Shown here in pieces: positions 1,139 to 25,455 of a DNA stretch of 33,820 bases. The notes under the pieces were generated by a model. The model searched no databases, had not been told where the DNA came from, and saw nothing but the letters and a program-made list of their open reading frames with translations. The stretch spans positions 1 to 33,820 of the forward strand of contig CAZOKS010000002.1 of assembly GCA_964580745.1 (NCBI GenBank), read 5' to 3'. Numbering within the stretch: the first letter of the stretch is position 1; every line of letters starts with the position of its first letter. A program made the translations under genes and the position numbers. This stretch comes from an uncultured Methanosarcinales archaeon (GTDB lineage Archaea; Nanobdellota; Nanobdellia; Woesearchaeales; UBA119).

Positions 1139-1152
1139 GCTCCTTAGCTAAC

Positions 1153-7600: not shown

Positions 7601-10600
7601 GTTATCATAGGCAGTCCAGTTAAACTCAATGTCTGGGGAGGTGGTGCTCCAATCATCTATGGGCTTATTAAGCTCAATCAGATAAGGCCCTTCATAATCC
7701 ACCTTAAGATACCATGTAGATGAATTTCCTACCCTTGATGATGTATCTTGGCAGGAAACACTCCAGTTATATTTCCTTTGCTCAAGTGATGAAAGGGTAA
7801 AGTTATTCATTCCACCATTGTTTATAGGGCTGGAATTAGTTTGGTTAAATATGCCATTTATGTACAAACTACAATTATCAATCTGACTATACGAAGAAGG
7901 GATGTATTCTAGGGTTACGCTTGAGCTGTTTACCCAGCTATTATTTTTGGGAGAGCTCAAATTTACTTCAGGCGCTTCAGTGCTAGCTACACTAACCTCA
8001 ACTGCCTCAGTATAAGAAGTTGAGTATTTACTTTGAGCAGCACACCTTATATATGTAGAACCCGGGGAAGACGCATTCAGTCCAAAGGATGTTGAATTAG
8101 ATGTGTTGAAAACATCTCCCATTGCGTGAGGATTAGTCTCGCTTCCATTCAACGAAATAATCCCTGAGCCAGATATAGCACTCCAACTCCCAGAGGCATT
8201 TGTCTGAGCAGTAACATTGGTTGAAAGGCAAGTTCCATCGGTGCAATTGACTTGACAAGATAATGTTAAGGAATTCCCCTGATCAACATATACCTTGGAG
8301 GAAGGAGCTGTTTTTGTTGCTTCCAGCGTTCCCAGCTGGGTAAAGCCAGTTACATTCACAAAGCTTGAAATATGGTCAATAAGATGCACAAAATCTCTGG
8401 ATTGGGCAGGATGCGTGTTTGTAAGCTCTATTTCGTAATAGAGCTTATCAGTGCTAAGAAGCCTTTTATCACTTGAAGGATTGCAGCTTCCCGTTGTGGC
8501 AGCTCCTGATGAGCTGGCCGTCCCTACTGTATTAGAGCATATTAATTCCTCTTCATCTGAACTATTTAAAATATAAAGCCACCAACTTACCTCAACCCTT
8601 GTATCGGAGGTTTGAAAATAAGTGCTGAATAAAACATCCCCTGATGAGGAGACCTCAGCACCATTCGCACCCATAAAAGGAGATTCCGCTTCTACAACCA
8701 ACTCGGAAGAGGAAGCAGCGATTGTTCCAGAGACAGAATTCTGGGTCCCATCTGTTCCCTGTTCTAAGGAAATCTCGCAAGGGAAGGAACTGCAATCACT
8801 TGTTGAAGATTCAAACCAATTACCATAATAAATTGGCTTGATAACTGATACTGTTAAGCTCCGAGAACTGCTTTGATTTGCATTCCCTGCTTCATCTACA
8901 CATCTAACATACCAAGAATAATCCCCATTATCAAGGTTATGATTAATGGTTTGGTTCTGATTCTTTGTTATTGATGTGTCTGTTTTTACACCGCTTCCAT
9001 TTACATAGAGGGTGCAATTGTCTATTCCAGAATCATCACTAACATTATACACAAAGGGAACCACATTAGAATCAGTATATGTGTCTCCATTACTTGGCAA
9101 AACCAAACTAACATCAGGCCCACTTCTATCGATTATGATTGTTCTATTAGTAGGAGAGGTAGCACTATTGCCATTAGAGTCCCAACACTCTACATTCCAA
9201 GCAAAATGCCCTTCATTGTTAAATGCAGCTATTATAGTGTTCTGACTCCCATTCGTAATAGAGTAAGTAGTGTTCTTAGCACTCCAGCTTGTTTCATTCG
9301 TGTATATGGAACAATTACTGATAGAGTACTCCTCGTTACTTGGGGTATAAGTGAACTCTTCTGAGGAGGCATTTGTTCTGTAATTGTTGTCAGGAGAATC
9401 AAGGGAAACCGAAAAAGCTCCAGGTTCAGTATAATTAATGGTATAGTTAACTCCATCAACACTTATGCTCATGCTTGGGCTTTTTCTTGATCTTCCCGGA
9501 GCCTGGAAATCCATGCTTGAATCTATATATATATAGTAGGTGCAATAATCAGGCCAATTGCTGCAATCCAAATTTGTAAAAGAGCGAGAACCGCTCTGCT
9601 CAATGCTTGAGTTGGTCCAACTTACTGATGTGGTTGAGGTATAAGACCCACTTCCAATAGTTGCTTCATCCCCATCATCATGGTTTTGGTCATGGTCAAA
9701 ATCCCCGCTTTGCTGAGCATTGCTCATAGTGCATCCATCAGCATTAACAGTAATAGTAACATTGATAATCATCTCTTCAAGAAAGAAACTTGTTGCATCT
9801 TGAGGGATGTTCAATGTAAAAGGGCAAAAGGTCGAGCAGGAAAGCGAGCCGCTATTCTGCTGATTGACCGAATCAGAACAACTGCATCCCACAGATGTGT
9901 TTACCTCGCTATACAATGGGTCTTCAGGCGTAAGCATAATGGTATAATTCTCTCCAGGAACAATATCCCTATCCTTCTGCCATCCACCCAAGCATTCCTG
10001 AGCATCAAAGTCATACTCTTGGCATTTATACAGCGCATTACCACTCGCTTCCAATTCAATCTGCGCAAAGGAAAAATTTAATCCTCTCGGATCAATAGCA
10101 AAGGACTGTACCGCTCTATTCCTGTTAACCCATACCTCTTTATTATCAATATCCTCCATCCTCAAACTATCCAGATTTTTGAGCTTAAGGTCATGAAACC
10201 TAATCTTGTTAACCTTGTTTGTTGGGTTAAGAACATCAATAAACTCTCCTCTGAAAGACCTGCCATATTCCCCCCTTACCTGCTTGCTTTGCCCTGCATG
10301 ATTCTTAATTTTTATAGGTATGGTAGCAAGCTTTTTCTCTTGGCCAAAAGAAGGGAGTGTCAGTGCTTTTTCTTCTCCAAGTATTTTCTCAGATTGCTTA
10401 TCAAATTGTTTATTTGTTTGCTTCCCTGATTGCAGCCCAACATCGCCGGCTTTATCCCCAACAAAGAAACTCGCTTCGTCAATTATCTTTCCCGAATCCC
10501 TCAGCTGGACAAAGTATTCCCCATTCTCAGAAGGAGCAAACCGAATCTCTTTGGAAAGCTCTAAGAGTTTGAAGCTTTTATCTTTATGAACAACAAACAG

Positions 10601-11104
10601 CTCCAAGGAAGGGTTATTAATGTTTCCCCCAACAAGCTGCACAACAAGCTCCTCTCCCTTTTGGAGTTTATTTGAGTTGATTCTCAGAGAAGGATAGCTG
10701 TTCCCCTCTTTTTTCTGAGAAAATTCCTTTTTATCCGAATTTATCTCACCTGAAACAACAAACTCAAGACTACTCATATCCCTGCCTGATTTATCCCTAA
10801 GAAAAACAGAATATTCACCTTCCTGAGCAAAACTTAATATTATAGGAAAAATCAACTCTCCCCAATACATACTTCTTCTTCCATCCTTGACCATTATTAA
10901 GTCATATTCCTTAGAAACATCTTTTCCATTCATGTTTTCAGGAACAAGCCTTAACTCTATCTTTTCATTAATGCCATAAACAATCTTCTCAAGCGGATTA
11001 AAAGAAACCTCAAAAGGCTGAATCTCAGAAAAAGAGCTATGATTACCTAAAACGATGAATACAAGTACAACTAATAAACCCGCAAAAATCTTTGGCCTTT
11101 CCAT
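1649..11104 (-). CDS. Giant (3151 aa) secreted adhesin-like protein with about 20 Ig-like repeats, two CARDB-like modules and a distinctive C-terminal domain
   Basis: 9456-nt uninterrupted ORF with an N-terminal hydrophobic signal/anchor (IFAGLLVVLVFIVLG). The N-terminal region has EGEY(S/F)V modules and the LYKC..(Y/W).F..QEC motif. Two Ig-like repeats lie at about 8840-9420, followed by a unique ~290-aa region and then the repeat arrays listed below. No C-terminal TM. N-X-S/T sequons occur about once per 10 residues in the repeats I inspected. Confidence 0.93.
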   Translation of the reverse strand: MERPKIFAGLLVVLVFIVLGNHSSFSEIQPFEVSFNPLEKIVYGINEKIELRLVPENMNGKDVSKEYDLIMVKDGRRSMYWGELIFPIILSFAQEGEYSVFLRDKSGRDMSSLEFVVSGEINSDKKEFSQKKEGNSYPSLRINSNKLQKGEELVVQLVGGNINNPSLELFVVHKDKSFKLLELSKEIRFAPSENGEYFVQLRDSGKIIDEASFFVGDKAGDVGLQSGKQTNKQFDKQSEKILGEEKALTLPSFGQEKKLATIPIKIKNHAGQSKQVRGEYGRSFRGEFIDVLNPTNKVNKIRFHDLKLKNLDSLRMEDIDNKEVWVNRNRAVQSFAIDPRGLNFSFAQIELEASGNALYKCQEYDFDAQECLGGWQKDRDIVPGENYTIMLTPEDPLYSEVNTSVGCSCSDSVNQQNSGSLSCSTFCPFTLNIPQDATSFFLEEMIINVTITVNADGCTMSNAQQSGDFDHDQNHDDGDEATIGSGSYTSTTSVSWTNSSIEQSGSRSFTNLDCSNWPDYCTYYIYIDSSMDFQAPGRSRKSPSMSISVDGVNYTINYTEPGAFSVSLDSPDNNYRTNASSEEFTYTPSNEEYSISNCSIYTNETSWSAKNTTYSITNGSQNTIIAAFNNEGHFAWNVECWDSNGNSATSPTNRTIIIDRSGPDVSLVLPSNGDTYTDSNVVPFVYNVSDDSGIDNCTLYVNGSGVKTDTSITKNQNQTINHNLDNGDYSWYVRCVDEAGNANQSSSRSLTVSVIKPIYYGNWFESSTSDCSSFPCEISLEQGTDGTQNSVSGTIAASSSELVVEAESPFMGANGAEVSSSGDVLFSTYFQTSDTRVEVSWWLYILNSSDEEELICSNTVGTASSSGAATTGSCNPSSDKRLLSTDKLYYEIELTNTHPAQSRDFVHLIDHISSFVNVTGFTQLGTLEATKTAPSSKVYVDQGNSLTLSCQVNCTDGTCLSTNVTAQTNASGSWSAISGSGIISLNGSETNPHAMGDVFNTSNSTSFGLNASSPGSTYIRCAAQSKYSTSYTEAVEVSVASTEAPEVNLSSPKNNSWVNSSSVTLEYIPSSYSQIDNCSLYINGIFNQTNSSPINNGGMNNFTLSSLEQRKYNWSVSCQDTSSRVGNSSTWYLKVDYEGPYLIELNKPIDDWSTTSPDIEFNWTAYDNRAANMSCDLRINGTRNTTITAYNATPATTTIEGFEIGYYIWDIACQDLANNTNTSETRSFNISDEPPQVSLYSPENESGTNETSVELTYNASDNFALDECELYINGIYNQSNQSVLINGLNNFSVSFDETEYNWSVTCYDNNGNNASTGNATLYVDLTKPYINLQSPGNDAYFTDSEVAFSYTPTDNYDTLNCTLYVDGVENDTSIVSSGNQYDVTLDGYKDGVHYWNVSCTDIGGNINYSETRNFTINQTPVVEPISPSNNTHTNQSNVLIEYNISDNDDIEGCSLYINSTFNQSNSTNVLKGQTNNFTLSSPAEAEYNWFVKCNDSGVYGNSDSSDTWRFIVDRTGPTISLNLPENDYTINTTVYTFNWTAADNFATGLLCNLSINDSVNGSNIESNNGVPALFNVTGLRNGDFNWSVSCVDNATNTNISETRNFTVLLSPRVNLTSPEDGDGDLFHDVSFKYIPSLGSENFTNCTLMLNGQENETKYDINAKVENNFTVTLPDGRYNWNVKCYDTNNLSGMAPENWTYYVDSEEPFEIELTYPENDSTVARNNVSFKFIPKDKISDELSCDVYLTDEGSTYSIGSDLNTTNGTEYTYYYILNDGTYNWSVDCTDKAGNFNVSDTWFFDVEAPPNVTLVAPDNESWFNETDVNLTYFPSDDILITGCALYINGSYNRTASFVLNKQNNTFEMGDLAQGAYLWSVQCNDSDGNSFMPTNKTFYVDNLSPQISLNSPINSEELDSSSVLFNWTASDNLATELSCDLWLNDSLNVTDITSNNGAPTTFTIEGIDDGDYNWSIFCRDNALNENQSNSEDFAVQEPPKVSLGNPIANYRNNSVNVTLYFTATDNSGNISLCTLILNSEANETNAGVESGVEASFNLYDLPNGSYTWDVNCSDPNSNTGTNGSSKSFYVDLEGPSVELHHPSDDQLFNQNDILFNWTATDFNSSVEVSCDLFISDPEGDILEENITSFSGEVSSKLVKNLSDGEHFWNVSCTDDLNNTDYSVTWRFVVNQPDLYINASLIGFNNTNPSINDTINITANVSNIGGIDASNVEVEFWDGRPDDGGSLIGSDQKNVAYNDSSLFYIEWNITEGMHVVFVSADPSNSINELNESNNNATLNISVLWVEWNSPENESVFNSSNVDLNFTLHDYTGGAINYSIYVNDMFSGEEGEGIDGVSENISVNLNEGLNTIFVEGLDYLDRRKNSSELYITLDTNAPTSEILTANESWFNISAPNISIRIIDSLDSILNYTLYINGSSENQGYVSNNSIENITLNTQPDGEYLLVLEGEDDASNKENSSSKIIYIDTEKPSIELNYPPNQENFSTSDVSLNYTVYDNLASVADCYITLDGEDKGLSNVNVGEENSYLATDLSEGEHLWNVTCFDEANNSNTSETRIFNVFFPPVIEVTSPKNLTWSNQDTNTFRFNVTDDTGIENCSIVLNGAIKDTKFNIINNSENSFTVSGMNNTNIWQIECYDNSSYHAYGISSERVLYVDLVEPSSTITTVNHTWFNSNPSISFILEDNMANPINYTVYVNDSFNSEGNSGNNSEDSANLLGLQNGTYEIKVEAKDNALNAQNSSSIIVYYDTVEPSINLTYPENDSSIDTDTTNLNFSVEDNMAESLICNLTLDGEIIEQNILVLNGSEENVSVVDLEGGPHYWNVSCIDNATNIGQSETYLFYSPYPDLEVNSSNIFFSDDSPSEGSIVNITATVFNIGGGDAKNITVQFWENEIGGSGSQIGSNQTINLTALESENVSVEYTAELGTNDIFVVVDPSNEIEEENETNNNASKSITVEFWHYAGGETNDTITLEDEELEGIFQWQVANSTGSNIYVSDYDADVNWQSLQALGRDTSGNERIEDFGELDNALNSSTFFDSVNATYLENGNPKETIELEVYNQEITNIPVVNSTNSTSFKTGILWDFSDGGTTYSEVQDVIFLTVVNKSQQGYNETRDFEIRIPATLGQLVGPDNDKVAFYTEIK
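1652..2203 (-). other. C-terminal ~184-aa domain of the giant protein (unnamed module, copy 1 of 4 in the window)
   Basis: FWHYAGGETNDTITLEDEELEGIFQWQV...NIYVS...FFDSVNATY...NIPVVNSTNSTSFKTGILWDFSDGG...VIFLTVVNKSQQGYNETRDFEIRIPATLGQLVGPDNDKVAFYTEIK(stop). It aligns by eye with ORFs 23821-24582 and 24648-25424, and with aa 93-262 of the 1369-aa protein. Confidence 0.65.
2204..2548 (-). other. CARDB-like module 2 of the giant protein
   Basis: PDLEVNSSNIFFSDDSPSEGSIVNITATVFNIGGGDAKNITVQFWENEIGGSGSQIGSNQTINL...DIFVVVDPSNEIEEENETNNNASKSITVE. This shows the V.N.G...A / F..D / D..N...E.NE.NN pattern typical of CARDB domains. Confidence 0.6.
2549..4219 (-). repeat. Tandem array of 6 Ig-like protein repeats (~93 aa, ~279 nt each)
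   Basis: Repeat starts read as LWVEWNSP, NAPTSEIL, EKPSIEL, FPPVIEV, VEPSSTI and VEPSINL. Three repeats have the Cys pair (DCYITLDG..WNVTCFD; NCSIVLNG..WQIECYD; ICNLTLDG..WNVSCID) and three have no Cys at all. DNA identity between units is low; the repeat is visible at protein level. Confidence 0.75.
4220..4555 (-). other. CARDB-like module 1 of the giant protein
   Basis: QPDLYINASLIGFNNTNPSINDTINITANVSNIGGIDASNVEVEFWDGRPDDGGSLIGSDQKNV...HVVFVSADPSNSINELNESNNNATLNISV. The pattern matches module 2. Confidence 0.6.
4556..7984 (-). repeat. Tandem array of 12 Ig-like protein repeats (~95 aa each), mostly alternating between two subtypes
   Basis: Subtype A looks like P.V.L.SP.N....V.L.Y..S.....C.LYING..N........NNF.......YNW.V.C.D. 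Subtype B looks like P.I.L..P........F.WTA.DN.A..LSCDL..N.....NG.....T..G...G.Y.W...C.D.A.N...SE.R.F. The order I read is A,B,A,A-like,A,B,A,B,A,B,A,B. 3429 nt / 12 = ~286 nt per unit. Confidence 0.75.
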
Positions 11105-11128: not shown

Positions 11129-12022
11129 TTACTTACCCTTCTCTTTATTTATCTCCTTAAGGGACCCTTCAACCTCCTCCTTAATCTCTTTGGAAAGCTT
11201 AGAGAATTTATTCTTCAACTCCTCCATGGTTGATTTGGTCTTGTCATCCAGCAGGTTTATAAGATTGGTAGTGTGCTTCTCAAACTTGTTGAACTTTTTG
11301 ATGAACTTTACCAGCTCATTCTTATCCGCTTTCTCGTCCACTTCTACCTTCAACTTATCAAAATCCCCCTGCAACTTGTCAAAACTTCTCTGAAGATTCT
11401 TTGTTATCTCATTAAACTGGTCAAACTCCGAAAATTTCTTCTCTACCTCAACAAACATAGACTCAACCTTGTTGGAATGCCTTTCAACATTTGCTTCCCT
11501 CTTCTTAATCTCAATCAGTTCCTCCTTAATTTCATCGTTGAGCTTGGTTACCTGTTCAACCCCCTTGTAGAAATCAATCTTGCTCTGAACTGATTTAAGC
11601 TGCTCCAGCACATTCTTCACAAGGGATTCATTGCTCTCAATATTCGCCTTCAGCGCTTCAGTCTTAGAATCAACCTTTCTAACCTCAATCATCAATTTGT
11701 CTGGTTTAACAGATTCCACAAGGTCAATCGCTTTAGTAGCAGCAGTTTCAAGGTTTGCAATCGTTTTTGATGTGTCTGTAAGCATCCCCCTCAGCTCTCC
11801 AATCTCCTCATTAAGTTTAGAAAATCTTTCATTTGTGGCTTTTCTCTCCTCGCTCAACCCTTCAATCTTGGCACTGAGCTTCGTCAACTCTATACCAAGC
11901 TTTGAATCACCGAAATTTTCCTCTTTAGAGCTCTGCCTAGCACTCGCTCTCCTTTGCTTTTCCTCTTCCAGATTTTGCTTAATCCTTTCCTCATCGCTTA
12001 GCTTTTTCTTAAAAGGCCACAT
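11129..12022 (-). CDS. Cytoplasmic coiled-coil protein (297 aa), function unknown
   Basis: K/E/L-rich heptad-like sequence throughout, with no hydrophobic TM segment. GAAGGTGGA lies just upstream of ATG 12022. The stop is 24 nt upstream of the giant gene start. Confidence 0.8.
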   Translation of the reverse strand: MWPFKKKLSDEERIKQNLEEEKQRRASARQSSKEENFGDSKLGIELTKLSAKIEGLSEERKATNERFSKLNEEIGELRGMLTDTSKTIANLETAATKAIDLVESVKPDKLMIEVRKVDSKTEALKANIESNESLVKNVLEQLKSVQSKIDFYKGVEQVTKLNDEIKEELIEIKKREANVERHSNKVESMFVEVEKKFSEFDQFNEITKNLQRSFDKLQGDFDKLKVEVDEKADKNELVKFIKKFNKFEKHTTNLINLLDDKTKSTMEELKNKFSKLSKEIKEEVEGSLKEINKEKGK

Positions 12023-12159: not shown

Positions 12160-12672
12160 TTAGTCCCCTTTATTTCCATTGTCCTCCCTAACTCGCCTCA
12201 TAATCTCGCTCTTCAAGTCATACTCCTTCTTTTCTTTATCCTGTTTAATTTGTTTCTCAATTTGGCTAATCAACTCTCCAAGTTCGTTAATCCGTTCCTC
12301 ATCATCTTCAATCTCGAGAAAGCCAATCTTCCCCTTAGCCATCGTTAATAACGCCGAAGCATGAAACATATCCTTTCCTTCTTTTCTGGCAGCTGAAATC
12401 TCTCTATCCAACTCAGCCATCTTTTCCTTCAAACCCTCAAGCTTCTCCATTCCAACCCGAACATCTATTAGAGAGGATTCTTTCATCACATTAACCTTCT
12501 CAAGGTATTTCTCTGATTCTTTCATTACTTTATCAAACTCCTCTCTGCTTATGCTTCCCTCATTCTTTTTCTCATTCCTATTTTCATAACTCTCAGGATT
12601 TCTCTTTTCAGTTTTGTCTTCTTTATTCCTTACCTTATTCATTTCCTGGGCCATTAGACAACGCCTCAACAA
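12160..12672 (-). CDS. Small cytoplasmic coiled-coil protein (about 160-170 aa), function unknown
   Basis: The ORF limit is ATG 12672. In-frame ATGs at 12654 (MAQEMNKV) and 12642 (MNKV) are more plausible starts. ATG 12642 overlaps the TAA of the upstream 1369-aa gene as ATGAATAA. The protein is charged and helical with no TM. Confidence 0.7.
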   Translation of the reverse strand: MLRRCLMAQEMNKVRNKEDKTEKRNPESYENRNEKKNEGSISREEFDKVMKESEKYLEKVNVMKESSLIDVRVGMEKLEGLKEKMAELDREISAARKEGKDMFHASALLTMAKGKIGFLEIEDDEERINELGELISQIEKQIKQDKEKKEYDLKSEIMRRVREDNGNKGD

Positions 12673-15600
12673 GCTTGTCCTTCTTCATTAGATTACCAAT
12701 CCTTTCCGCGAATTCCTCATCCTCAAGGGAGTATTTTATCCAATTGGAAAAATCATGCTTTTCCTCATTTACATACTTCCTGAATGTCTCATCTGGCATA
12801 TCCTTTAATATCTCCTTTAATTCCTTAAGATTAGAGGCCACCTTTCCATCGGAAAATCTGAACTCCTTTCCTTTAGGAGCCTTCTTATTCAGCAGTCCTT
12901 CAAGATTATTCTTAGATTCAGGGCTCTCCAGAGTATCATCTTTATTCTTTTCCTTAGTTGTTTCATCAACATTCCCTTCACCTTCTTCGCCAGCCTCTTT
13001 GTTATTGCTTTTCCCTTCCTTTTCTTCCCTTTCTTTCCCCTCTTCTTTATTTTCTCTATCCTCTTCTCCTTTTTCTTTTCCTCCATCTTTCTCTTCTTTT
13101 CTATCTTCTCTGTTCTCATTATTTTCTCCTTCATCTCCTTTTTCTTCACTTACAGTATCGCTTTCTTCATCGTCTTTCCCTTCTTTTCTATCTTCTCCGT
13201 TCTCTTCACCCTTTCCATCCTCTCCATCCTTTCCATCATCCTCCTTGCTTTCGTTCTTCTTTTTATCATCCTTGCCTTTTTCTTTTTTAGGAAGTTTTTC
13301 TCCCTTGCTCCTTTTATCCAACAACTCCAAAATCTCCTTTCGGTCTTTAGTTTCATCAAGCAAATCAGCGAGCTCATCATCTCCAACTGCATTTCGAATC
13401 CAATCAGCAAAATCATTTTTCTCATCATTAACATGGAACTTGAAGTCTGAGTCCTTCATTGCCTCAATCTCTGCATACAAATCTCTGGGATTTACTACCA
13501 ACATGCCATTGTTAAGCTTCAGCATATTTTCAGGCTTTACATCTCTGTTAAATCTCTCCGTTACGGACTTCTCTGATTCCCCTTCCTTCTTCTTACCTTC
13601 TTCATCACCTTTTTTCTGTTCAGCCTCAATCTTCTCCCTTTCCTTCTTCGCTTTCTCCAGCTCCCTTCTCATCTCCTCTTCCGAAACCTTCGGCCTCTCC
13701 AACTTCTTTGGCTTTTTGCCAAGCTTCTTCCACAGCTTCTCAACCCTGGGCTTCAGGCCATCAAGATAGATTTTGGCCATGTTGAAACCTCCCGCCTTAA
13801 CCTTATCTAGTGCAAGTTTCAACTCCAACTTCAAGTCAAACACATCCTGGTCCAACTGTTCCAGCTGCTCCAACTCAAACTGCATCTGGTCAATAATATC
13901 ATTGTATTCGTTGTATTTCTCAATCTCTTCATCAGAAAGCCTCTCAACCGAATGCTTAATAGGTTTGAAAGTAACAAAGTAAGGCCGGCCTCTATTATAT
14001 GCCGAATTTTGCACCATCCCAGTTCCAACGCTTGCTTTAACCAAACTCTTCAAAACCTCATCACCGTACTTGGTCTTAATCCTCTCCAAATCCCCTTCAT
14101 CCCTTGTTCGCATCTGGATTTCCGTATTGATGTTAGCTTTAATCTGCCCCACGAAGTCCGCCAAAACCTGGCTAATAAGCATAACGCCAATTCCCCACTT
14201 CCTAAACTCTCGGCAAGCCCTTTCAATCTGGATAAAGCCCTCCCCACTTCCACCAAACTTGGATAGCAACCTATGGACCTCATCGTAAACCAAGCATAAT
14301 CTTAACTCTTGAGACTCATCAAAACCCTCATGGAATACCTCTCTAACTGTGTTCGCAACAAATACATCAATATCCTTAGGGTCAAGCTTATGAAGAGCAA
14401 AAACCTGAATTTCTCCCGGTTTCATATACTTCTTTATGTTAATAATCTCTTTAGCATCTGTAATCTCTCGAATGTTTCCCTTGAAAGCTTTAGCATCATT
14501 CGGCTTCATCCCAAATCCTGAATAAAGATTCAGCAACCCCTTATTCTCCAATTTCCTTAAAAATCCAGTCCACTGAGCAGTAGGATCAAACACAATAACA
14601 GCAACATCCTTATCCAACAACTCTTCAATAATTACCTGGGCAGCGAAACTCTTACCACCACCAGTACTACCTGCCACAATCGTGTGAGTCTTAAAGTTCT
14701 CAATCTTGAAATAAGTCCTATTATTCGTTTCTGCAATCTTCCCAACATATATCGTATCGGGTCCAGGTTTAGGAAGCTGCGAATACTCCACCTTCAAATG
14801 ATACTTCTTCTTCGCTTCAATTTCCTTTCTAAGCATAAATATGCCGAAAATCAATAAAGCCAATCCAATACCCATTAAGATGGCCTGCCAAACCCTTATC
14901 TTTCCAAACAAGAGATGCTGATAGAAAGGCTCTGTTACAGTAAAAACAGCACTAGTACTGCTCGTTAAATCAAGATAGCTGGCGCTTGCCCTGATTATAT
15001 ATTCGCCTGTAGGCAAATCAGGAGGCAGCTCATAATTCTTAATTATTGAAAGAGAAGTCCTCAAAAAAACATTCGTTTGATGAGTCCATAAAGTCTCATT
15101 GCCATTTATATTCTGAATAGTATAAACCAACTGCACCGGATACTGCTGGTCGGTAAGCAGATTTGTTAGAGAATTCTTGAATCTAACAAACGAGCCCGGA
15201 TAGTAATTCTTTTCAGGAACGCTGATTTCCATTAACATCGCCTGAACAGGACTCTTCTCCTTGCCTAAAATCTCAATAATGATAGGGATTGTCGTATTAA
15301 TCCCGCCAGTAATGTTAAGCGTTCCATTGTATACCCCTGGAGTGCTGTTTCCAAAGAAAGTCAAGGTCAAATCATCAAGGTCCTTTGCCCCAATAAACGT
15401 TCCCCTTTTATCCATCATTGTTATTTTCTTAACATCTCCTGTAATGTTAAATTGAAGCTGAATCCCCTTGTTCTTAAAACTCTGGATATGAATAACCTCT
15501 TGGGCAAACTCAGCCAGCCTAATCTTCTTATAGATTTTATTGACAGAAATCCAGAACTCCTTCCCCTCAATCTCAGAGGGCCTTTCTTTTCTATATGGGA

Positions 15601-16744
15601 TTTCGCCAGGACCCACATTCGGCCCAAAATCCGGTCCCACATTTTGTTCCGCGGGCGGGCTGTCATACTCTTTCTGCTCGACCTCCAGCTCCATGATAAT
15701 ATTATGCATGGTTGAATTGCCTTCCGGAATCGTGATATTGCTTTCATATACCTGATAGTTCTCCTTTATCGCGATTATCTGCGTCTCGCCCGCCCGCGTT
15801 GTCAGATTGTAAAAACCCTTCTCATCCGTAACCGTGGATTTTGGGCCGGATGTTATCAGCACATTCTCTAATGGATTCCCGCTTATATCAGTTACAATTC
15901 CATAAACTATTCCTTTTACATATGGTTCTTCTTGCCCCGAAATACAAACATTTGTAGGGTCTATGAAAACATAGTATTTTGTGGTTTGATTGTTGTGAAC
16001 AGGCAGGAGAAACTGGTAGTTGTAGTATCGATTGGTAAACCCCTTAACTAATCTCTCATTCAAGATGGTAACCACGACAGGATTCCCATTGCTGTCCTTC
16101 AAAAGGCCTGTTTTGAATGTGCCCTCTTCAGTGCCACTTCCTACTTTGGTTGTCGCAGCAGGTATGTTGTTGATGGTTTTGGAGCCAATCTCTATGCTCA
16201 TTGTCCCGGTAAAGGTATTGGAAGCAGAATCATAGTCATCTGGGTTCGAATTTATGAAGGCATTAACCTCGGCAGGAGACATTGGAACAAGGTCTTGCAC
16301 AACTATTTCTTCAGGAGGTACGGTAGATGCAAACAATAGGTTGTCTTTTCCTTCTTCTACACAATCAAAGAACATATTGGCTTCTTCTGTTCCCCCCGGC
16401 TCAAATGTGTATTCCCATGGCTGAGAAAAACCAACGCCAAATGCAGCACCGTATAAGGCAACCCAGTTGTATGTTGGTCTTGTGTATATAAGATTCATAT
16501 TATAGATATAACCGCCTCGCCCTTCATGATATATTATAAAACCGGTTATTCCTTCACGCCCTAAAAAAGAGGCTGTGATTAGGATTATTGCGCATACAAC
16601 AAGAGATATGATTATCGCCCAGTTCCTTTTACTATCCCTTTTCCTTTTATCTCTTTCATCTAGGAATTTCTCAAGGGCAGGCTCTCTTTCTATGAGATGT
16701 TCAATATCCTTATTTATCTGCTGCGGTTTTTTTATCCCAACCAC
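12635..16744 (-). CDS. Two-TM membrane protein (1369 aa): large ectodomain, cytoplasmic HerA/FtsK-superfamily P-loop ATPase, low-complexity linker and two conserved tail modules
   Basis: GTG start at 16744, directly after an in-frame TAG.
- Basic N-terminus.
- TM1 at aa 42-62 (16559-16621).
- Ectodomain with a carboxypeptidase-regulatory-like beta-sandwich (GIVYGIVTDISGNPLENVLITSG..TDEKGFYNL, about 15690-15930).
- TM2 at aa 618-638 (14831-14893).
- Walker A GSTGGGKS (14648-14671).
- Walker B LCLVYDE (14279-14299).
- Further context: VIVFDPTAQW, MLISQ, NTEIQMRTRD.
- Coiled coil, then a K/E/D/G-rich linker (about 12888-13295).
- Tail modules at about 13296-13560 and 12638-12887. Confidence 0.9.
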   Translation of the reverse strand: MVGIKKPQQINKDIEHLIEREPALEKFLDERDKRKRDSKRNWAIIISLVVCAIILITASFLGREGITGFIIYHEGRGGYIYNMNLIYTRPTYNWVALYGAAFGVGFSQPWEYTFEPGGTEEANMFFDCVEEGKDNLLFASTVPPEEIVVQDLVPMSPAEVNAFINSNPDDYDSASNTFTGTMSIEIGSKTINNIPAATTKVGSGTEEGTFKTGLLKDSNGNPVVVTILNERLVKGFTNRYYNYQFLLPVHNNQTTKYYVFIDPTNVCISGQEEPYVKGIVYGIVTDISGNPLENVLITSGPKSTVTDEKGFYNLTTRAGETQIIAIKENYQVYESNITIPEGNSTMHNIIMELEVEQKEYDSPPAEQNVGPDFGPNVGPGEIPYRKERPSEIEGKEFWISVNKIYKKIRLAEFAQEVIHIQSFKNKGIQLQFNITGDVKKITMMDKRGTFIGAKDLDDLTLTFFGNSTPGVYNGTLNITGGINTTIPIIIEILGKEKSPVQAMLMEISVPEKNYYPGSFVRFKNSLTNLLTDQQYPVQLVYTIQNINGNETLWTHQTNVFLRTSLSIIKNYELPPDLPTGEYIIRASASYLDLTSSTSAVFTVTEPFYQHLLFGKIRVWQAILMGIGLALLIFGIFMLRKEIEAKKKYHLKVEYSQLPKPGPDTIYVGKIAETNNRTYFKIENFKTHTIVAGSTGGGKSFAAQVIIEELLDKDVAVIVFDPTAQWTGFLRKLENKGLLNLYSGFGMKPNDAKAFKGNIREITDAKEIINIKKYMKPGEIQVFALHKLDPKDIDVFVANTVREVFHEGFDESQELRLCLVYDEVHRLLSKFGGSGEGFIQIERACREFRKWGIGVMLISQVLADFVGQIKANINTEIQMRTRDEGDLERIKTKYGDEVLKSLVKASVGTGMVQNSAYNRGRPYFVTFKPIKHSVERLSDEEIEKYNEYNDIIDQMQFELEQLEQLDQDVFDLKLELKLALDKVKAGGFNMAKIYLDGLKPRVEKLWKKLGKKPKKLERPKVSEEEMRRELEKAKKEREKIEAEQKKGDEEGKKKEGESEKSVTERFNRDVKPENMLKLNNGMLVVNPRDLYAEIEAMKDSDFKFHVNDEKNDFADWIRNAVGDDELADLLDETKDRKEILELLDKRSKGEKLPKKEKGKDDKKKNESKEDDGKDGEDGKGEENGEDRKEGKDDEESDTVSEEKGDEGENNENREDRKEEKDGGKEKGEEDRENKEEGKEREEKEGKSNNKEAGEEGEGNVDETTKEKNKDDTLESPESKNNLEGLLNKKAPKGKEFRFSDGKVASNLKELKEILKDMPDETFRKYVNEEKHDFSNWIKYSLEDEEFAERIGNLMKKDKLVEALSNGPGNE
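15959..16468 (-). other. Ectodomain segment (aa 93-262) of the ATPase protein carrying the unnamed module shared with the giant adhesin and the small secreted proteins
   Basis: TYNWVALYGAAFG...NLLFAS...DDYDSASNTFTGT.SIEIGSKTINNIP...GTFKTGLLKDSNGNPVVVTILNERLVKGFTNRYYNYQFLLPVHNNQTTKYYVFIDP. Compare FKTGILWDFSDGG..VIFLTVVNKSQQGYNETRDFEIRIPA..FYTEIK at the giant C-terminus. Confidence 0.6.
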
Positions 16745-16933: not shown

Positions 16934-19900
16934 CTATTCGATGCTTTGGTTGTTGAGTATCTTAAGCAGGTCTTCTACCTCTTCCTTCAATTCTTTCTTA
17001 TCAGCATCATTTAAGAGGTCATAGGCTTCATTCAATTCCCTCATCCTTTCAATTTTGTCAATCTGTTTATCATCTCTTATCTCTTCTGCTGTTTTGTCTA
17101 TCATTTTTAAGAGATATGCTTTATTGATTTTGTCATGAATGCTAAGGGCTTCTTCATAAGCATCTTCTTTGATTCTCTGAGGCATCTTTTCATAAATCAA
17201 TTTAATTTCCTTGAACACCATGTTTGCTCTTTCCAAATTTCCTTCCTGAAGATAATCCAGAGCATCGTTTATCAAGGACCTTATCTGAGCCAATTGTTTT
17301 TTCTTTCTGCGTTTGGCAACGCTCAATATATTTTCTCCAACCTCAGTTGAAAATATTAGGTAAATGGCTATTACTACTGATACAAGGATTATGCCAAATA
17401 TAGGAGAGGTGAAATCAACATCAGGCAAAGAGAACGCTCCTGTTATCAAATTCCCTCCTTTATCAGTGGAGATTAGATTCTCTGAGAATACAATAGTTTG
17501 TGATTCTTTTATGCTCTCAAAATCTTTAAATTCATCAGTATAATAGATTATTTTATCCTTTAATTCGAATTTTACTAGCGGGTCTTTCTTTATTGTTTCC
17601 TGGCTGCTCACAAAAGTTATGGCATTTGTTGTTTCTGCGAAGCCTTTTGAGATGTTCTCTAATATAAAAACGCGAGTATGGTCCGCTCCTGAATAAGTGA
17701 TTACTTTTTCTACCAGCGTAATCTCTTCTGTATGGTTGTCAAGGAATTGGAGTGTTACATGGCTTGCCTTTGTTTCTACAGAAAGTTTGTTTTGGAGTTC
17801 CTTTAGTTTCTCTTCATCAACTTTTCCTAAAATTCCTTTCTCTTTAATATATTGGTTTGCTATACTAACCAGTTCTTGTTGTTTTGGGTAACTAACATAG
17901 CTCTCTGTTTTTTCTACCTTTAGAGTAGAAATTGTGTTTTTCTCCAACTCTTTTAACTCAGCCTGATATTCCTCAGCTTTCTTTTTCTTTTCGTCATTGC
18001 TTAGGTCTTTTCGGTATTGAAGATTGTTCAAATCCCTTATCTTTCTTTCGAATGTCTGGAGGGTCCTTTCCAGGTCTTGTTTTACTGATAACGCTTCGGC
18101 CGCTGATTTTGATTGTAGGTCAAGTCCGTTTAGGTTTTCAAATCCTTCTTCTATCTTTGTTCTTAAAGAGCCTGCATCTATGCTTCCATCTGTTTGCTCT
18201 TCTTTTGAACTCTTTTCTGTATCTGACTGCTGAACAGATGCAGTATTGTCCTTTTCCACCTCAAAGCTCGCAATCTCTGATGAGAATGTGTCATTCCCTG
18301 AATCACATTCAATCTTCCATTCATACTTTCCCTTATCTAGGGTTTTGGTTAGCTCTGCTACATAGTTTTCTTCTACATCGAAACTTTTAATCTCTTCAAA
18401 CCAATCAGATTTACTTGGTTTTAGGAAAATGGTACATTCTGCATCTTCTGCACTGCTCACGCTTGCTAAGAAAGTTATATCTTGGTAATCAAATGAGCTT
18501 TCATCTTTCGGCTGGAACAGGACTATTTGGTTGAGCTTCTCTCTTAAAGAGTTATCCAATTGAAGAACCACATCTATAGTCTGCTTCTCTTTGACTTCTA
18601 TAGCCCTTCTGTATGCTTCGTAATCCTTTTTCTCCACCCTTAAGGTATGCTCTCCAAGAGGCACCTTCAGCTTAATTTCACCATTATCTTTCGTATATCC
18701 GCTTCTGTCTCCGAAGTCCACATAGGCAGATTCGATAGCTTTGCCATTAGAGTCCTTAACTCTGATTGTGATTTCTCTCCAATCATCCACATCAACAGCA
18801 ATCTGCTTGGTTTTAGAGTTTCCTTCACTATCCTTAACCTCAAGAGTAATGCCATAATTTCCTTTTTCATCATATTTTATCTCCAGGTTTTTGTCTTCAA
18901 TTCTAGTTCCGTTCTCTAAAATCCATGAGTAGTGATAGCCGGGAATTCCTCCAGATGCGCTTGCTTCAAGCTCAAGTTCTTCCCCAACAAGAACATCTAG
19001 TTTTCCTTCAATCTCAATCTGCAGGTTATTTGAAACAACAAAGCTCTTTCCTATTTTATATGTTTTGTTTTGGTGGCTGATTGTTGCATTTATTGAATAT
19101 TCTCCCGTTGTGTTTAAACTTCCCAATGACTTTATCAGGGGGTATGTTTCTTTATTTAGAGTGTAAATATTGGAGCAGGTTATCCAGGTTTGTCCTGCCA
19201 TATACTCCGGCCCGCAAAACTCAATGTTGGCATTTGAACCATTCGGAGCTGTTATCTTGAAATATCCTTCCTCTCCTATTGTATAATTCTCCTTATTAAG
19301 CTCGAGTGAGAATACCAGCGGCAGAACCCCAATTTCCTTTTCAATCCTTTTTTCTTCGTAATTTTCAGAACCATTATATACTATTTCTATAAGGTATTCC
19401 CCCTTTTCAGAAAAGGTATGATTAACTGAAATGCTTTCTGAGGATACATAAGAATCATTGATTATTGAGCCATTGATTAGAAGGTATATCTTTCCTTCAG
19501 GGTTATTATTCTTGGCGTTAATCTCTATACTATCTCCTTCATATATGATGTTTTCAGAAATAGAAAACTCTATGTTTGGCTCAGCCCTCTTAACCTCAAA
19601 CTTAAATGTGGGAGTTGAATAAGTTTCATCTAACACATCTAACAGAAAAGATAGACTCCAAGTATAATTTCCCGAAGGAATTTCAGGAGTGGTGCAGGAA
19701 AAGTTATAAAGATTATCATCTGTTATTGTATTATAACTATATGTCCACTCAATATCTTCATTAATTGCTTCTCCATCTGGACCTATTGGTCCGTTTGGTT
19801 CTCCTCCATTGGAAATATTCCATACGCTCCATAATACAAATTTTTTATTAGGTTCATAAATAAAGCTTGAACCATCTTCTGGTCCGTACTTGTCAATCCA

Positions 19901-20131
19901 TTCTGCTGTTGGTTCGTTGTTTGTTTCGGGGTTGTTTGTTGTTTCATTGGTTTTAATTGTTTTTGCTGATTCATTGGTTTCATTGGTTTCATTTGTTGGG
20001 TCTAAGGTATCAGCCCCTATAACTATGTCCATTTCAATGGCAAAGCCCACAGCAAATACCGCAGCAATCAGCAATATCATTATGCTGGTATTAAAGATAT
20101 CCCAAAACCCAAATCTCCTCTCCTTTTTCAT
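16934..20131 (-). CDS. Bitopic surface protein (1065 aa): Ig/PKD-like and carboxypeptidase-regulatory-like domains, extracellular coiled coil, C-terminal TM and helical cytoplasmic tail
   Basis: Domain order:
- N-terminal signal/anchor (IMILLIAAVFAVGFAI).
- PKD-like GGIPGYHYSWILENGTRIEDKNLEIKYDEKGNYGITLEVKDSEGN (about 18790-18985).
- ITIRVKDSNGKAIESAYVDFGDRSGYTKDNGEIKLKV (about 18565-18775).
- One Ig repeat like those of the giant protein (KYEWKIECDSGND).
- Coiled coil.
- Juxtamembrane TIVFSENL...ITGA.
- TM PIFGIILVSVVIAIYLIFS (about 17345-17405).
- ~136-aa helical tail.
The start overlaps the upstream RHH stop as ATGA. Confidence 0.9.
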   Translation of the reverse strand: MKKERRFGFWDIFNTSIMILLIAAVFAVGFAIEMDIVIGADTLDPTNETNETNESAKTIKTNETTNNPETNNEPTAEWIDKYGPEDGSSFIYEPNKKFVLWSVWNISNGGEPNGPIGPDGEAINEDIEWTYSYNTITDDNLYNFSCTTPEIPSGNYTWSLSFLLDVLDETYSTPTFKFEVKRAEPNIEFSISENIIYEGDSIEINAKNNNPEGKIYLLINGSIINDSYVSSESISVNHTFSEKGEYLIEIVYNGSENYEEKRIEKEIGVLPLVFSLELNKENYTIGEEGYFKITAPNGSNANIEFCGPEYMAGQTWITCSNIYTLNKETYPLIKSLGSLNTTGEYSINATISHQNKTYKIGKSFVVSNNLQIEIEGKLDVLVGEELELEASASGGIPGYHYSWILENGTRIEDKNLEIKYDEKGNYGITLEVKDSEGNSKTKQIAVDVDDWREITIRVKDSNGKAIESAYVDFGDRSGYTKDNGEIKLKVPLGEHTLRVEKKDYEAYRRAIEVKEKQTIDVVLQLDNSLREKLNQIVLFQPKDESSFDYQDITFLASVSSAEDAECTIFLKPSKSDWFEEIKSFDVEENYVAELTKTLDKGKYEWKIECDSGNDTFSSEIASFEVEKDNTASVQQSDTEKSSKEEQTDGSIDAGSLRTKIEEGFENLNGLDLQSKSAAEALSVKQDLERTLQTFERKIRDLNNLQYRKDLSNDEKKKKAEEYQAELKELEKNTISTLKVEKTESYVSYPKQQELVSIANQYIKEKGILGKVDEEKLKELQNKLSVETKASHVTLQFLDNHTEEITLVEKVITYSGADHTRVFILENISKGFAETTNAITFVSSQETIKKDPLVKFELKDKIIYYTDEFKDFESIKESQTIVFSENLISTDKGGNLITGAFSLPDVDFTSPIFGIILVSVVIAIYLIFSTEVGENILSVAKRRKKKQLAQIRSLINDALDYLQEGNLERANMVFKEIKLIYEKMPQRIKEDAYEEALSIHDKINKAYLLKMIDKTAEEIRDDKQIDKIERMRELNEAYDLLNDADKKELKEEVEDLLKILNNQSIE

Positions 20132-20394
20132 TTTAAAGTCCTCAACGATTCTTTCAACTCTTTGAGTAATTGTTCGTTTCTTTCCAACATCGCTTCTAAT
20201 TCCTTTGCTTTTTTGGATGTGTTTTCGCGCTTTTTTGGAGTAAGAAGCCTTCGTTCTTTATCTTCGAGGAATCTCTTGTTTAAGACCGCCCTAATCTGTT
20301 CTGAAATATCCATATAAAAGTTCTTCTCGCTTAATGATTTCAATCTTCTTGCTAATCCAGCGGGCATTCTTATGCTAACTAAAGTGTCATTCAT
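20128..20394 (-). CDS. Ribbon-helix-helix DNA-binding protein with coiled-coil C-terminal extension (88 aa)
   Basis: LVSIRMPAGLARRLKSLSEKNFYMDISEQIRAVLNKRF fits the RHH strand plus two helices. There are ATGA overlaps with both neighbours (20391-20394 and 20128-20131). Confidence 0.8.
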   Translation of the reverse strand: MNDTLVSIRMPAGLARRLKSLSEKNFYMDISEQIRAVLNKRFLEDKERRLLTPKKRENTSKKAKELEAMLERNEQLLKELKESLRTLK

Positions 20395-20582
20395 TTCAGC
20401 GCCTCCTCTTCTTTTCTTATTCTTTTGTCATCCTTGTTATTACTTTCTTCCAACACATATTCTCTAAGGAAAGCCCTTATTGCTTCAGAACGAGATTTGA
20501 ACAAACCTTCTTTGATTAAATCATCTAACCAATTCACAATTTTTCTTGGAATTCTGACATTAACTGTTTCTATCTTAACCAT
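20391..20582 (-). CDS. Ribbon-helix-helix (CopG family-like) DNA-binding protein (63 aa)
   Basis: VNVRIPRKIVNWLDDLIKEGLFKSRSEAIRAFLREYV is a textbook CopG/NikR-N-terminal-type RHH pattern. It is the first gene of the minus-strand train. Confidence 0.85.
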   Translation of the reverse strand: MVKIETVNVRIPRKIVNWLDDLIKEGLFKSRSEAIRAFLREYVLEESNNKDDKRIRKEEEALK

Positions 20583-21816: not shown

Positions 21817-21918
21817 AACAGAAGAATATAGGAATAGATGTGGAGTAAAAAGATGTGAGGTAAAAAGACCTACTAAATACTAATAATGAATGAACTAATA
21901 AAGAATAGCTGATGAAGA

Positions 21919-24582: not shown

Positions 24583-24647
24583 ACCCTCTATCTTTTTGTT
24601 TTATTTTTTCATGTGTATATTTATATTGAAGGTCGGTGGTGTATAAA

Positions 24648-25424: not shown

Positions 25425-25455
25425 AGGTAATCAAGTCTCATTGAGGTATGTAAAC

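Follow-up and report, generated by a model that had tools for sequence, protein, structure and literature searches.

DPANN archaea are abundant, mostly uncultivated symbionts that are expected to depend on a host. How they attach to this host and exchange material with it is a central open question, for which the SPEARE proteins are the main candidates. SPEARE proteins were named for the Nanohaloarchaeota by Hamm et al. (2019, PMC6642349), who placed their most conserved part inside the cell and took it for a type III restriction enzyme. The same study recovered SPEARE ectodomain peptides by proteomics, also counted SPEARE versions of 655 and 717 amino acids (aa), and reported homologues of the conserved region in Woesearchaeota, Aenigmarchaeota, Micrarchaeota and Altiarchaeales. 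Later, the giant surface proteins of cultivated nanohaloarchaea were equated with these SPEARE proteins and re-annotated as a Sec signal, about 75 Ig-like domains, a transmembrane helix (TM), a 'VirB4/TraG-like ATPase domain' and a coiled coil; re-examination revealed no endonuclease domain, and both protease and endonuclease domains were disputed (Reva et al. 2023, PMC10266531). A SPEARE-type family is not described in the analysis of archaeal dark matter by Makarova et al. (2014). SPEARE proteins have been studied in a few nanohaloarchaea only, and their motor domain is annotated in conflicting ways. Here we analyse a stretch of 33,820 nucleotides of metagenomic DNA (contig CAZOKS010000002.1, hereafter the window; about 38% G+C) which on its minus strand encodes a membrane-anchored P-loop ATPase of 1369 aa. 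With it, a known family of unsolved mechanism gains a new, short member. The gene and the parts of its product are as follows.

12635-16744, minus strand: gene of the short SPEARE-family protein, 1369 aa, GTG start (open reading frame (ORF) list and translation)
16619-16744, minus strand: basic N-terminal cytoplasmic segment, aa 1-42, with KRKRDSKRN at aa 33-41 (sequence, charge count)
16562-16618, minus strand: TM1 or signal-anchor, aa 43-61 (Kyte-Doolittle peak 2.91)
15962-16465, minus strand: D1, aa 94-261, mixed beta with short helices (AlphaFold2, predicted local distance difference test (pLDDT) about 90; hidden Markov model (HMM); hhalign)
15692-15916, minus strand: D2, aa 277-351, CarboxypepD_reg-like beta-sandwich (PF13620, E 5.4e-8, 33.5 bits; AlphaFold2)
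15566-15676, minus strand: Pro/Gly-rich disordered linker between D2 and D3, aa 357-393 (AlphaFold2 pLDDT < 50; sequence)
14936-15556, minus strand: D3 (aa 397-493) and D4 (aa 503-603), membrane-proximal tandem Ig-like domains, family core (AlphaFold2)
14828-14890, minus strand: TM2, aa ~619-639, then basic RKEIEAKKK (hydropathy)
13940-14806, minus strand: HerA-clade P-loop ATPase, cytoplasmic, aa 647-935 (Pfam DUF87; PDB profile; Foldseek)
14648-14671, minus strand: Walker A GSTGGGKS, within VAGSTGGGKSF at aa 690-700 (sequence)
aa 716-725, minus strand: VIVFDPTAQW (sequence)
14273-14293, minus strand: Walker B LVYDEVH, aa 818-824 (sequence)
14168-14221, minus strand: EFRKWG...ISQ stretch, with MLISQ at aa 855-859 (sequence)
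aa 873-882, minus strand: NTEIQMRTRD (sequence)
13724-13933, minus strand: conserved helical or coiled-coil region, aa 938-1007 (AlphaFold2 helices)
13310-13540, minus strand: tail module 1, DUF5752-like, aa 1069-1145 (PF19027; internal repeat)
12890-13309, minus strand: K/E/D/G-rich low-complexity linker, aa 1146-1285 (charged fraction about 0.58)
12659-12886, minus strand: tail module 2, DUF5752-like, aa 1287-1362 (BLASTP against module 1; Pfam)

From aa 432 to 998 the window protein is collinear with the C-terminal part of the SPEARE protein of Nha. antarcticus, at 38% identity over 580 aa (E 6.6e-132); the sequence printed in SI Fig. S18 of PMC6642349 served as the reference. The ATPase and the following helices (aa 647-998) reach 47% identity and 69% positives over 356 aa (E 4e-110), and the helices at aa 938-1007 align with the C-terminal end of the reference protein. 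An HMM of D3-D4, built from homologues of the window protein, also matches the reference (E 3.4e-10, database size set to one million). The idea that the similarity is limited to generic P-loop motifs is already contradicted by the 580-aa collinear alignment. The window protein has the conserved intracellular P-loop region of SPEARE proteins with the same weak ResIII signal, a single TM that separates the ectodomain from a cytoplasmic C-terminal region, and a coiled coil after the ATPase. It is not very large, and in its ectodomain Pfam finds CarboxypepD_reg alone, not the laminin-G and multiple adhesion domains of SPEARE proteins; the adhesion-domain load lies in a separate giant gene of the operon (Big and CARDB in the window, Laminin_G_3 in the syntenic locus L003). 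Neither a serine protease nor a restriction endonuclease family was detected. On these alignments the window protein is almost certainly a short member of the SPEARE family.

The original prediction, made on the window alone, had described a HerA/FtsK-like ATPase behind two TM helices that bracket a large ectodomain. This observation itself is confirmed: the order of basic N-terminus, TM1, beta ectodomain, TM2, NTPase, helices, K/E linker and two tail modules is borne out by hydropathy, AlphaFold2 and Pfam, and all quoted motifs are present in the claimed order. The statement that no member with such an ectodomain had been described does not hold, as SPEARE proteins were named in 2019 (PMC6642349) and re-annotated in 2023 (PMC10266531), and that of Nha. 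antarcticus is 47% identical in the ATPase. The premise of a candidate new apparatus fails because the same core defines the SPEARE proteins of Nanohaloarchaeota. Overall, this first reading of the protein is partly supported.

The extent of the family was examined by searching a profile of TM2, ATPase and helices against 1.84 billion cluster representatives (50% identity clusters), which yielded at least 398 proteins at E <= 1e-30. Relatives are encoded at no fewer than 577 loci of GTDB species genomes. Family-wide domain counts refer to the best 150 representatives, all at E < 1e-131, and synteny counts to the 80 best genomic loci of the at least 577, in which ORFs were called and compared with the window proteins; most absences of operon genes from these 80 loci are due to contig ends. 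The taxon spread found independently equals the list in PMC6642349. Table S3 of that paper lists a protein from 'Euryarchaeota archaeon SM23-78', a metagenome-assembled genome (MAG) that is also the source of the syntenic locus L046; sameness of the gene with the Table S3 entry is not confirmed. In proteins of 452-6253 aa the TM2-ATPase-helices module lies close to the C-terminus, with nothing behind it except a cytoplasmic tail that varies in length. In the 63 clearly full-length representatives 0 to 4823 aa separate the N-terminal hydrophobic segment from the TM before the ATPase, and 59 are without any other TM. D3 was found by HMM in 101 and D4 in 109 of the 150 representatives, at a fixed distance from the ATPase, and minimal forms of about 700 aa (Altiarchaeales, Pacearchaeota) have D3-D4 alone outside. 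We show that the family core consists of two membrane-proximal Ig-like domains, one TM, a HerA-clade P-loop ATPase and a conserved helical region. A protein of 402 aa (P0268) comprises TM and ATPase without an ectodomain, and a TPR gene comes directly behind it.

The gene is real, far beyond chance, with 19 full-length homologues (43-76% identity, E = 0) and 80 syntenic loci. The identical 1369-aa protein (P0001) occurs in public collections, on a contig of 33,867 nucleotides, and the closest genomic relatives stem from Candidatus Woesearchaeota MAGs, e.g. UBA119, with an ATPase region 93% identical. HerA is normally a soluble protein of about 500-600 aa and metagenome contigs can be chimeric, which would speak for a chimeric ORF or a mis-assembly that joined a surface-protein gene to the gene of an ordinary soluble HerA repair helicase. 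However, the same full-length architecture recurs across samples, in about 80 loci and in the 19 independent homologues, the HAS-barrel position of HerA is taken by TM2 about 50 aa before Walker A, and NurA, Mre11 and Rad50 genes were not found nearby. Such an artefact is already refuted by the comparative data and its probability is negligible. An origin from a mobile element was likewise considered and rejected: there were no phage matches, and on three plasmids only DUF87 matches at 24-26% identity were found. No close relatives of the ATPase protein were found on plasmids or phages.

Hydropathy reveals only two strong hydrophobic segments in the 1369 aa, at aa 43-61 and ~619-639, both with basic flanks on the predicted cytoplasmic side (KRKRDSKRN before TM1, RKEIEAKKK after TM2). 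An N-terminal hydrophobic segment is seen in 82 of the 150 family representatives, and of the 125 with a Walker A, 114 have a TM 30-90 aa ahead of it. Across the 63 clearly full-length representatives NxS/T sequons number 2.9 per 100 aa outside versus 0.2 inside. These features support a predicted topology with the N-terminus inside, an ectodomain of 557 aa outside and a cytoplasmic part of 730 aa with the ATPase inside, the cytoplasmic part being the longer of the two. In the AlphaFold2 model of the ectodomain (aa 62-618, 24-row alignment, mean pLDDT 80) four beta-rich domains, D1 to D4, bear out the several beta-sandwich modules foreseen from the sequence. No Pfam model matched D1, D3 or D4. 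Foldseek returned generic tandem Ig/FnIII/ASH-type matches only, such as RbmA, WxLIP and hydin-like proteins, and a homologue search with an ectodomain profile retrieved 5 proteins only and gained no name for D1.

Concerning the ATPase, Pfam assigns the central DUF87/HerA domain (PF01935) with 45.1 bits (cut-off 23.2, E 1.7e-11); Pfam and NCBIfam scans were judged against each model's own cut-off. Other Pfam matches are weaker or sub-threshold, namely HerA_C, FtsK_SpoIIIE (PF01580, 18.4 bits, cut-off 24), TrwB_AAD_bind (16.2 bits, cut-off 20.5) and ResIII (E 0.0057, 17.0 bits, cut-off 22.5). Among NCBIfam models CedD (NF053655) scores best with E 4.3e-8 and 32.3 bits (cut-off 600), restricted to aa 666-732, followed by TraD (28.3 bits, cut-off 366, Walker A region only), HerA (NF040937, 27.6 bits, cut-off 800) and TraC (24.5 bits, cut-off 567). 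A profile of 13 family members searched against PDB found HerA-type chains at E 3e-10 to 1e-5, FtsK at 0.0096-0.023 and VirB4 (4ag5) at 0.04. Foldseek with an AlphaFold2 model of the ATPase (13-sequence alignment) ranked HerA first, then DndH, VirB4, TcpA, EccC and FtsK; the model was used solely for ranking superfamily members because its pLDDT is 63 and TM-scores are about 0.3. The HerA/FtsK-type P-loop assignment of the original prediction is thereby narrowed: these comparisons place the ATPase in the FtsK-HerA superfamily, nearest to the HerA clade and not to VirB4. None of the 19 full-length homologues departs from Walker A, Walker B, the SQ motif or EFRKWG, which in the alignment corresponds to EGRKFG of Sulfolobus HerA, and the whole ATPase is strongly conserved, with 82% mean column identity. 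To judge from the invariant Walker and other motifs the ATPase is apparently catalytically active.

The ATPase does not fall under any curated family definition. A DUF87 domain is present as in HerA; a HAS-barrel, a full-length equivalog score and a NurA/Mre11/Rad50 neighbourhood are not. Since TM2 ends about 50 aa before Walker A, there is no room for a HAS-barrel. The protein lacks the N-terminal domain and the equivalog-level similarity of VirB4, partner genes of a type IV secretion system (T4SS) were not detected, and it qualifies neither as a type IV coupling protein (T4CP), nor, having a single ATPase domain, as FtsK/SpoIIIE/EssC, nor as a Ced ATPase. The original SPEARE annotation, a restriction-enzyme-like intracellular domain that degrades imported DNA, was proposed in PMC6642349 and would fit the weak ResIII match here and in the precomputed Pfam lists of many homologues. 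That match, however, stays below its cut-off and overlaps the region under the DUF87/HerA match, no nuclease or protease family was detected in the window protein by Pfam or NCBIfam, and the re-examination of SPEARE proteins in PMC10266531 found no endonuclease domain. The restriction-enzyme annotation is largely refuted and very improbable.

Another explanation is a T4SS-like 'straw', in which the ectodomain binds the host and a VirB4/TraG-like ATPase secretes protein effectors into it, as proposed in PMC10266531. The FtsK-HerA superfamily does include the protein-secreting VirB4, T4CP and EssC, all among the fold matches, and the precomputed Pfam lists of family members contain weak TrwB_AAD_bind, AAA_10 and T4SS-DNA_transf matches. 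Against it, Pfam gave no match to the VirB4 N-terminal domain (PF03135, CagE_TrbE_VirB) in the window protein, TraC, TraD and TrwB_AAD_bind remain below their cut-offs, in the profile search against PDB the E-value of HerA is eight orders of magnitude below that of VirB4, and close homologues on plasmids or phages were not found. The genes around the ATPase bear on this explanation as well.

The ATPase gene is gene 4 of a seven-gene operon on the minus strand, whose other members are listed here.

20391-20582, minus strand: gene 1, RHH (CopG-type), 63 aa (Pfam RHH_1, E 5e-6; 25/80 loci, a count limited by the small protein size)
20128-20394, minus strand: gene 2, RHH-like, 88 aa, related to the RHH protein (56/80 loci)
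16934-20131, minus strand: gene 3, PKD/CarboxypepD_reg membrane protein, 1065 aa (PKD_4, E 2.5e-10)
12160-12672, minus strand: gene 5, W_170, cytoplasmic helical, 170 aa (BLASTP; 19/80 loci)
11129-12022, minus strand: gene 6, W_297, coiled-coil, 297 aa (66/80 loci, 41-93% identity)
1649-11104, minus strand: gene 7, giant secreted adhesin-like protein, 3151 aa, with Big_13, Big_7 and CARDB (Pfam; downstream in 56/80 loci)

Gaps between successive genes are -4, -4, 189, -38, 137 and 24 nucleotides (nt), so that the 88-aa gene 2 overlaps both neighbours by 4 nt. The same gene order recurs almost everywhere flanks exist in the 80 loci. The PKD protein, which has an N-terminal hydrophobic segment, a TM at 17345-17401 and a helical cytoplasmic tail of 136 aa, is encoded directly upstream of the ATPase in 72 of them. 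The giant gene lies three genes downstream of the ATPase gene, and the only hydrophobic segment of its product is N-terminal and signal-like. The operon link to giant adhesins is thus stronger than originally noted (giant in 56, PKD protein in 72 of 80 loci), and in the survey of neighbourhoods homologues do associate with surface-protein genes. The predicted lack of a NurA, Mre11/Rad50 or CedA-like partner also stands: none was found in the window, and NurA, Mre11 and Rad50 were equally missing from the conserved operon.

W_297 is adjacent to or near the ATPase gene in the Pacearchaeota locus L006, the Altiarchaeales locus L007 and in L005, and it directly follows the gene of a fused family member of 6253 aa in L089. 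As it recurs in woesearchaeal, Pacearchaeota, Altiarchaeales and fused loci, W_297 is regarded as a core partner of the ATPase. Single-sequence and profile comparisons of W_297 with PDB and Pfam gave coiled-coil noise only, and its Rad50/SMC matches are coiled-coil only and far below cut-offs; a PspA/ESCRT-III-like nature was unsupported and dropped. W_170 matches the C-terminal parts of the products of L001 13618-15024 and L003 14310-15353 (BLASTP). Elsewhere the gene next downstream of the ATPase encodes DUF5752 modules with W_170 attached behind them; here these modules are fused to the ATPase. W_170 and W_297, cytoplasmic helical proteins without signal peptides encoded directly downstream of the motor, could be substrates or chaperones of the 'straw' introduced above. 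W_297, however, is conserved like the motor itself (41-93% identity) and therefore fits a structural partner better than an effector. VirB6-, VirB2- and VirB3/8-like genes or a second VirB4-type ATPase were not detected in the window or the conserved operon, where remote structural homologues were not searched for. Taken together we consider effector secretion through a T4SS-like straw unlikely.

The cytoplasmic tail begins with the post-ATPase helices, in which D967-D970, K976, D980 and other residues are invariant. Behind them, PF19027 (DUF5752) matches two stretches with 30.6 bits (cut-off 23); the two modules are repeats of one another (28% identity, E 4e-11, BLASTP). A literature search for DUF5752 found no paper. 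The match of the tail to 8vd6 'CAP repeat' in PDB (E 0.005) was rejected, since 8vd6 is a designed protein, and that to OrfY (4cso, E 0.24) was not significant. The extreme strand skew in GC and AT at 12-14 kb is explained by the K/E-rich linker with its purine-rich coding strand. Antisense to this linker lies an S/F/L-rich ORF of 364 aa (12675-13769, plus strand), which we rejected as a gene because it is a shadow ORF of the purine-rich coding strand. Some members (P0018, P0172, P0274; L008 10001-12752) have TPR repeats in place of the DUF5752-like tail, fused or in the next gene. A related tail is found on a further surface protein of the window.

26840-30013, minus strand: W_1057, membrane protein of 1057 aa with two hydrophobic segments (BLASTP, tail against tail)

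In W_1057 an ectodomain lies between an N-terminal hydrophobic segment and a TM at aa 745-763, and the cytoplasmic tail (26843-27118) ends in a DUF5752-like module with 32% identity to the ATPase tail (E 4e-10). With the same module on both tails, several surface proteins may bind a shared partner in the cytoplasm.

A second connection within the window runs through D1, the domain at the tip of the ATPase protein.

23821-25424, plus strand: W_253 (23821-24582) and W_262 (24636-25424), small secreted D1-domain paralogues (BLASTP to the ATPase ectodomain; HMM)
1652-2284, minus strand: D1-like domain at the C-terminus of the giant, last ~210 aa (hhalign; HMM)

The D1 HMM matches W_253 and W_262 at E 3e-10 and 9e-14, and hhalign aligns D1 with the W_253/262 family at 99.4% (E 1.4e-21). 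The giant's C-terminus aligns with D1 at 95.6% (E 1.2e-8) and with the W_253/262 family at 98% (E 1.8e-13). D1 occurs in 30 of the 150 representatives, always at the N-terminal tip and in proteins of 875-1970 aa, none above 2000 aa. In L089, with its fused member of 6253 aa, no separate giant gene was called among the neighbours. D1 at the motor tip and at the giant's C-terminus, together with the fused giants, suggests that in the woesearchaeal operon adhesin and motor-anchor are separate chains joined via D1-type domains. W_253, W_262 and W_313 are consecutive small secreted sequon-rich proteins (23821-26355, plus strand). About 13 loci (e.g. L041, L052, L054, L064, L066) have, in the vicinity of the ATPase gene, a similar set of one W_253-type, one to three W_262-type and usually one W_313-type gene. 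W_313 matched no family (best WxLIP_PGBD, E 0.03). D1, D3-D4, W_253, W_262, W_313, W_237, W_593 and W_1057 gave nothing significant against Pfam and PDB sequences.

We propose that the ATPase forms a ring beneath the membrane, as its FtsK-HerA relatives do, and that the TM helices and six ectodomain stalks would hold this ring at the membrane. D1 at the tip of the stalk would dock the giant adhesin, perhaps also the small D1 paralogues, and thereby re-create non-covalently the single-chain arrangement of giant SPEARE proteins ('split SPEARE'). W_297 in the cytoplasm and the PKD protein in the membrane would be fixed partners of a complex that attaches the cell to its host, while the ring would spend ATP in moving a polymer at the contact site. 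Nucleic acid, in DNA uptake or hand-over, would be favoured, if weakly, over protein effectors as this polymer, because DNA motors are the nearest characterised relatives, RHH genes stand in the operon and host dependence is expected. The best curated matches, CedD, TraD and HerA, are DNA motors too and lend it weak support. The ATPase protein is probably part of a surface adhesion complex with its operon partners. The statement as a whole, up to a ring motor coupled to an adhesion complex, is slightly favoured over its contrary. Whether the ATPase is a ring translocase of some polymer, as its relatives suggest, we regard as evenly balanced; by the same analogy nucleic acid is a tentative candidate for the substrate, with the odds against it. 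It is doubtful that the 'split SPEARE' machine would be a distinct archaeal envelope apparatus, not a T4SS derivative, moving DNA or another polymer between DPANN symbiont and host. The parts proposed for it, with equal reserve, are a HerA-like ring on single TMs and Ig-like stalks, an obligatory W_297, the PKD protein and the D1-docked giant.

A translocase wired to a surface domain, as first predicted, is a reasonable hypothesis; the functions ascribed to the family are likewise hypothetical. Several points weigh against the proposal. Ring formation and pore properties are assumed from relatives, and the quality of the ATPase model is low. Curated DNA-motor families gave only fragmentary matches far below their cut-offs. 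RHH genes were not found beside Altiarchaeales or Pacearchaeota members; RHH proteins were for this reason rejected as universal DNA-handling partners and are treated as probable operon regulators. D1-D1 docking is a suggestion from homology and from fused versus split architectures. In the window protein alone the excess of NxS/T sequons is modest (10 observed versus 6.0 expected, allowing for composition), and it was rejected as topology evidence for this protein. Family-wide, one TM helix per protomer is conserved. Among the examined window ORFs of 100 aa or more only an ABC-2 permease has more than two hydrophobic segments; its homologue occurs in only 3 of the 80 loci, and no polytopic channel protein is conserved as a neighbour. 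With one conserved TM per protomer and no conserved polytopic partner a membrane conduit is not evident.

The lack of a conserved channel partner, the single TM and the universal coiled-coil partner agree with a non-translocating organiser, in which ATP-driven assembly or remodelling of the ring would cluster six ectodomains into a rosette and no polymer would cross the membrane. The adhesion complex would then be coupled to a W_297 coiled-coil scaffold and to adaptor tails (DUF5752-like, TPR), and the ATPase might serve in positioning, tensioning or turning over the attachment structure. The variable tails of protein-interaction modules, DUF5752-like in the ATPase protein and W_1057 and TPR in the members named above, fit such a role. 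The ectodomain of the giant forms is exported by Sec-type signals, so that the motor is not needed for this export. On the other hand, we know of no characterised ATPase of the FtsK-HerA superfamily that does not pass DNA or protein through its ring, and a cytoskeletal W_297 has nothing positive in its favour, its database matches being unspecific coiled-coil noise. Neither the invariant catalytic motifs nor the 82% column identity, signs of an enzyme under strong constraint, discriminate between the roles. We hold a rosette organiser of this kind to be improbable, and so too its coupling to scaffold and adaptor tails and its role in handling the attachment structure.

Further features of the window and of the syntenic loci were observed. 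Surface-protein genes dominate the whole window, and no tRNA or Rfam matches were found in it. Divergent from the RHH gene, an ABC_tran ATPase and the ABC-2 permease, the latter with a long coiled-coil insert, are encoded at 20833-23604 (plus strand); the pair is found at the same position in L003/L004, L009, L010 and L017 and is missing from most loci. W_593 (30300-32081, plus strand) is a secreted, membrane-anchored protein with a TM at aa 549-567 and a short cytoplasmic Cys-rich zinc-ribbon-like tail (KKCKNCGYKNPILRKTCKKCKEPL); a homologue, 41% identical, adjoins the ATPase gene in L005. At the left window end (1-1146, minus strand) a partial secreted ORF of at least 382 aa contains a 'YKCRDWNFSEQECLGE' stretch that resembles one in the N-terminal part of the giant, and at the right end (32860-33820, plus strand) a Cys-rich secreted protein of 320 aa with a C-terminal TM is encoded. 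A gene for a SpoIIM-family membrane protein lies within a few kb of the ATPase in two distant lineages (L005 10056-10862, L007 3889-4734), maybe by coincidence. Many loci with the Woesearchaeota-type operon are deposited as 'uncultured Methanosarcinales archaeon', 'Candidatus Saccharibacteria bacterium' or 'Alphaproteobacteria bacterium'; these titles look like those of mislabelled or contaminated bins, not of true hosts.

The window shows that the motor core is widespread in Woesearchaeota and relatives, is nearest to the HerA type and has a fixed coiled-coil partner. In its short form it stands in a seven-gene operon whose separate giant adhesin has a domain in common with the motor tip. The placement in the HerA clade, the universal coiled-coil partner, the seven-gene operon and the D1 link between motor and giant appear to be absent from the SPEARE literature consulted. 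Motor, partner and the putative docking domain pair are concrete, testable components for structural and biochemical work, and a new kind of system is not established by them. If the far-reaching proposal above were true, hundreds of DPANN species would possess a translocation system of a new class that acts at cell contacts.

Compared with known systems, the window protein resembles CedB/CedD of the Ced DNA import system, archaeal TM-anchored HerA-clade ATPases that act at cell-cell contact (PMC11868833). The CedD match, however, covers only about 70 residues around Walker A. Instead of an ectodomain, the Ced ATPases possess a VirB4-NTD-like domain in the cytoplasm, and they work with polytopic CedA/CedE and with CedA1 pili (PMC11868833), none of which was found here. 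T4CPs (VirD4/TrwB/TraD) likewise have an N-terminal TM hairpin followed by a cytoplasmic FtsK-HerA ATPase, an arrangement formally identical if TM1 is retained. Their inter-TM loop comprises a few dozen residues, versus 557 aa here and up to ~4,800 aa in relatives; an all-alpha domain, a relaxase or T4SS context and plasmid-borne close relatives are all missing here, and scores are below cut-offs. EssC/EccC of type VII systems are also membrane-anchored FtsK-like motors near large-ectodomain partners and small helical cytoplasmic proteins, and they are among the fold matches. They possess three ATPase domains versus one here, no FHA domain and no WXG100- or LXG-type genes were seen, and the similarity is weaker than that to HerA. 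The nearest ATPase cores are those of HerA-NurA and of the anti-phage HerA systems Sir2-HerA and DUF4297-HerA (PDB 4d2i, 9x1l, 8xau, 9c1m). In contrast to these, the window protein has a TM helix in place of the HAS-barrel, is membrane-anchored with an ectodomain, has about 120 aa between Walker A and Walker B versus about 200 aa in the aligned Sulfolobus HerA chain, and has no NurA, Mre11/Rad50, Sir2 or DUF4297 partner.

From the giant SPEARE proteins of nanohaloarchaea the window protein differs in its size of 1369 aa versus 4,000-9,400 aa and in that laminin-G, protease-like and toxin-like regions were not detected in it. The giant adhesin is a separate gene in the window, no VirB4-type ATPase gene of the kind reported for SVXNc_0299 of Nanohalococcus (PMC10266531) lies downstream, and the window organism, unlike nanohaloarchaea, is not halophilic. 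The Nha. antarcticus protein has neither the D1 tip of the window protein nor its long cytoplasmic tail with a pair of DUF5752-like modules. With NAR1_1133 of Nha. antarcticus (5,998 aa) and SVXNc_0300 of Nanohalococcus occultus (9,409 aa) the window protein has in common the succession of Ig-like domains, TM, ATPase and coiled coil, and an extracellular adhesion region.

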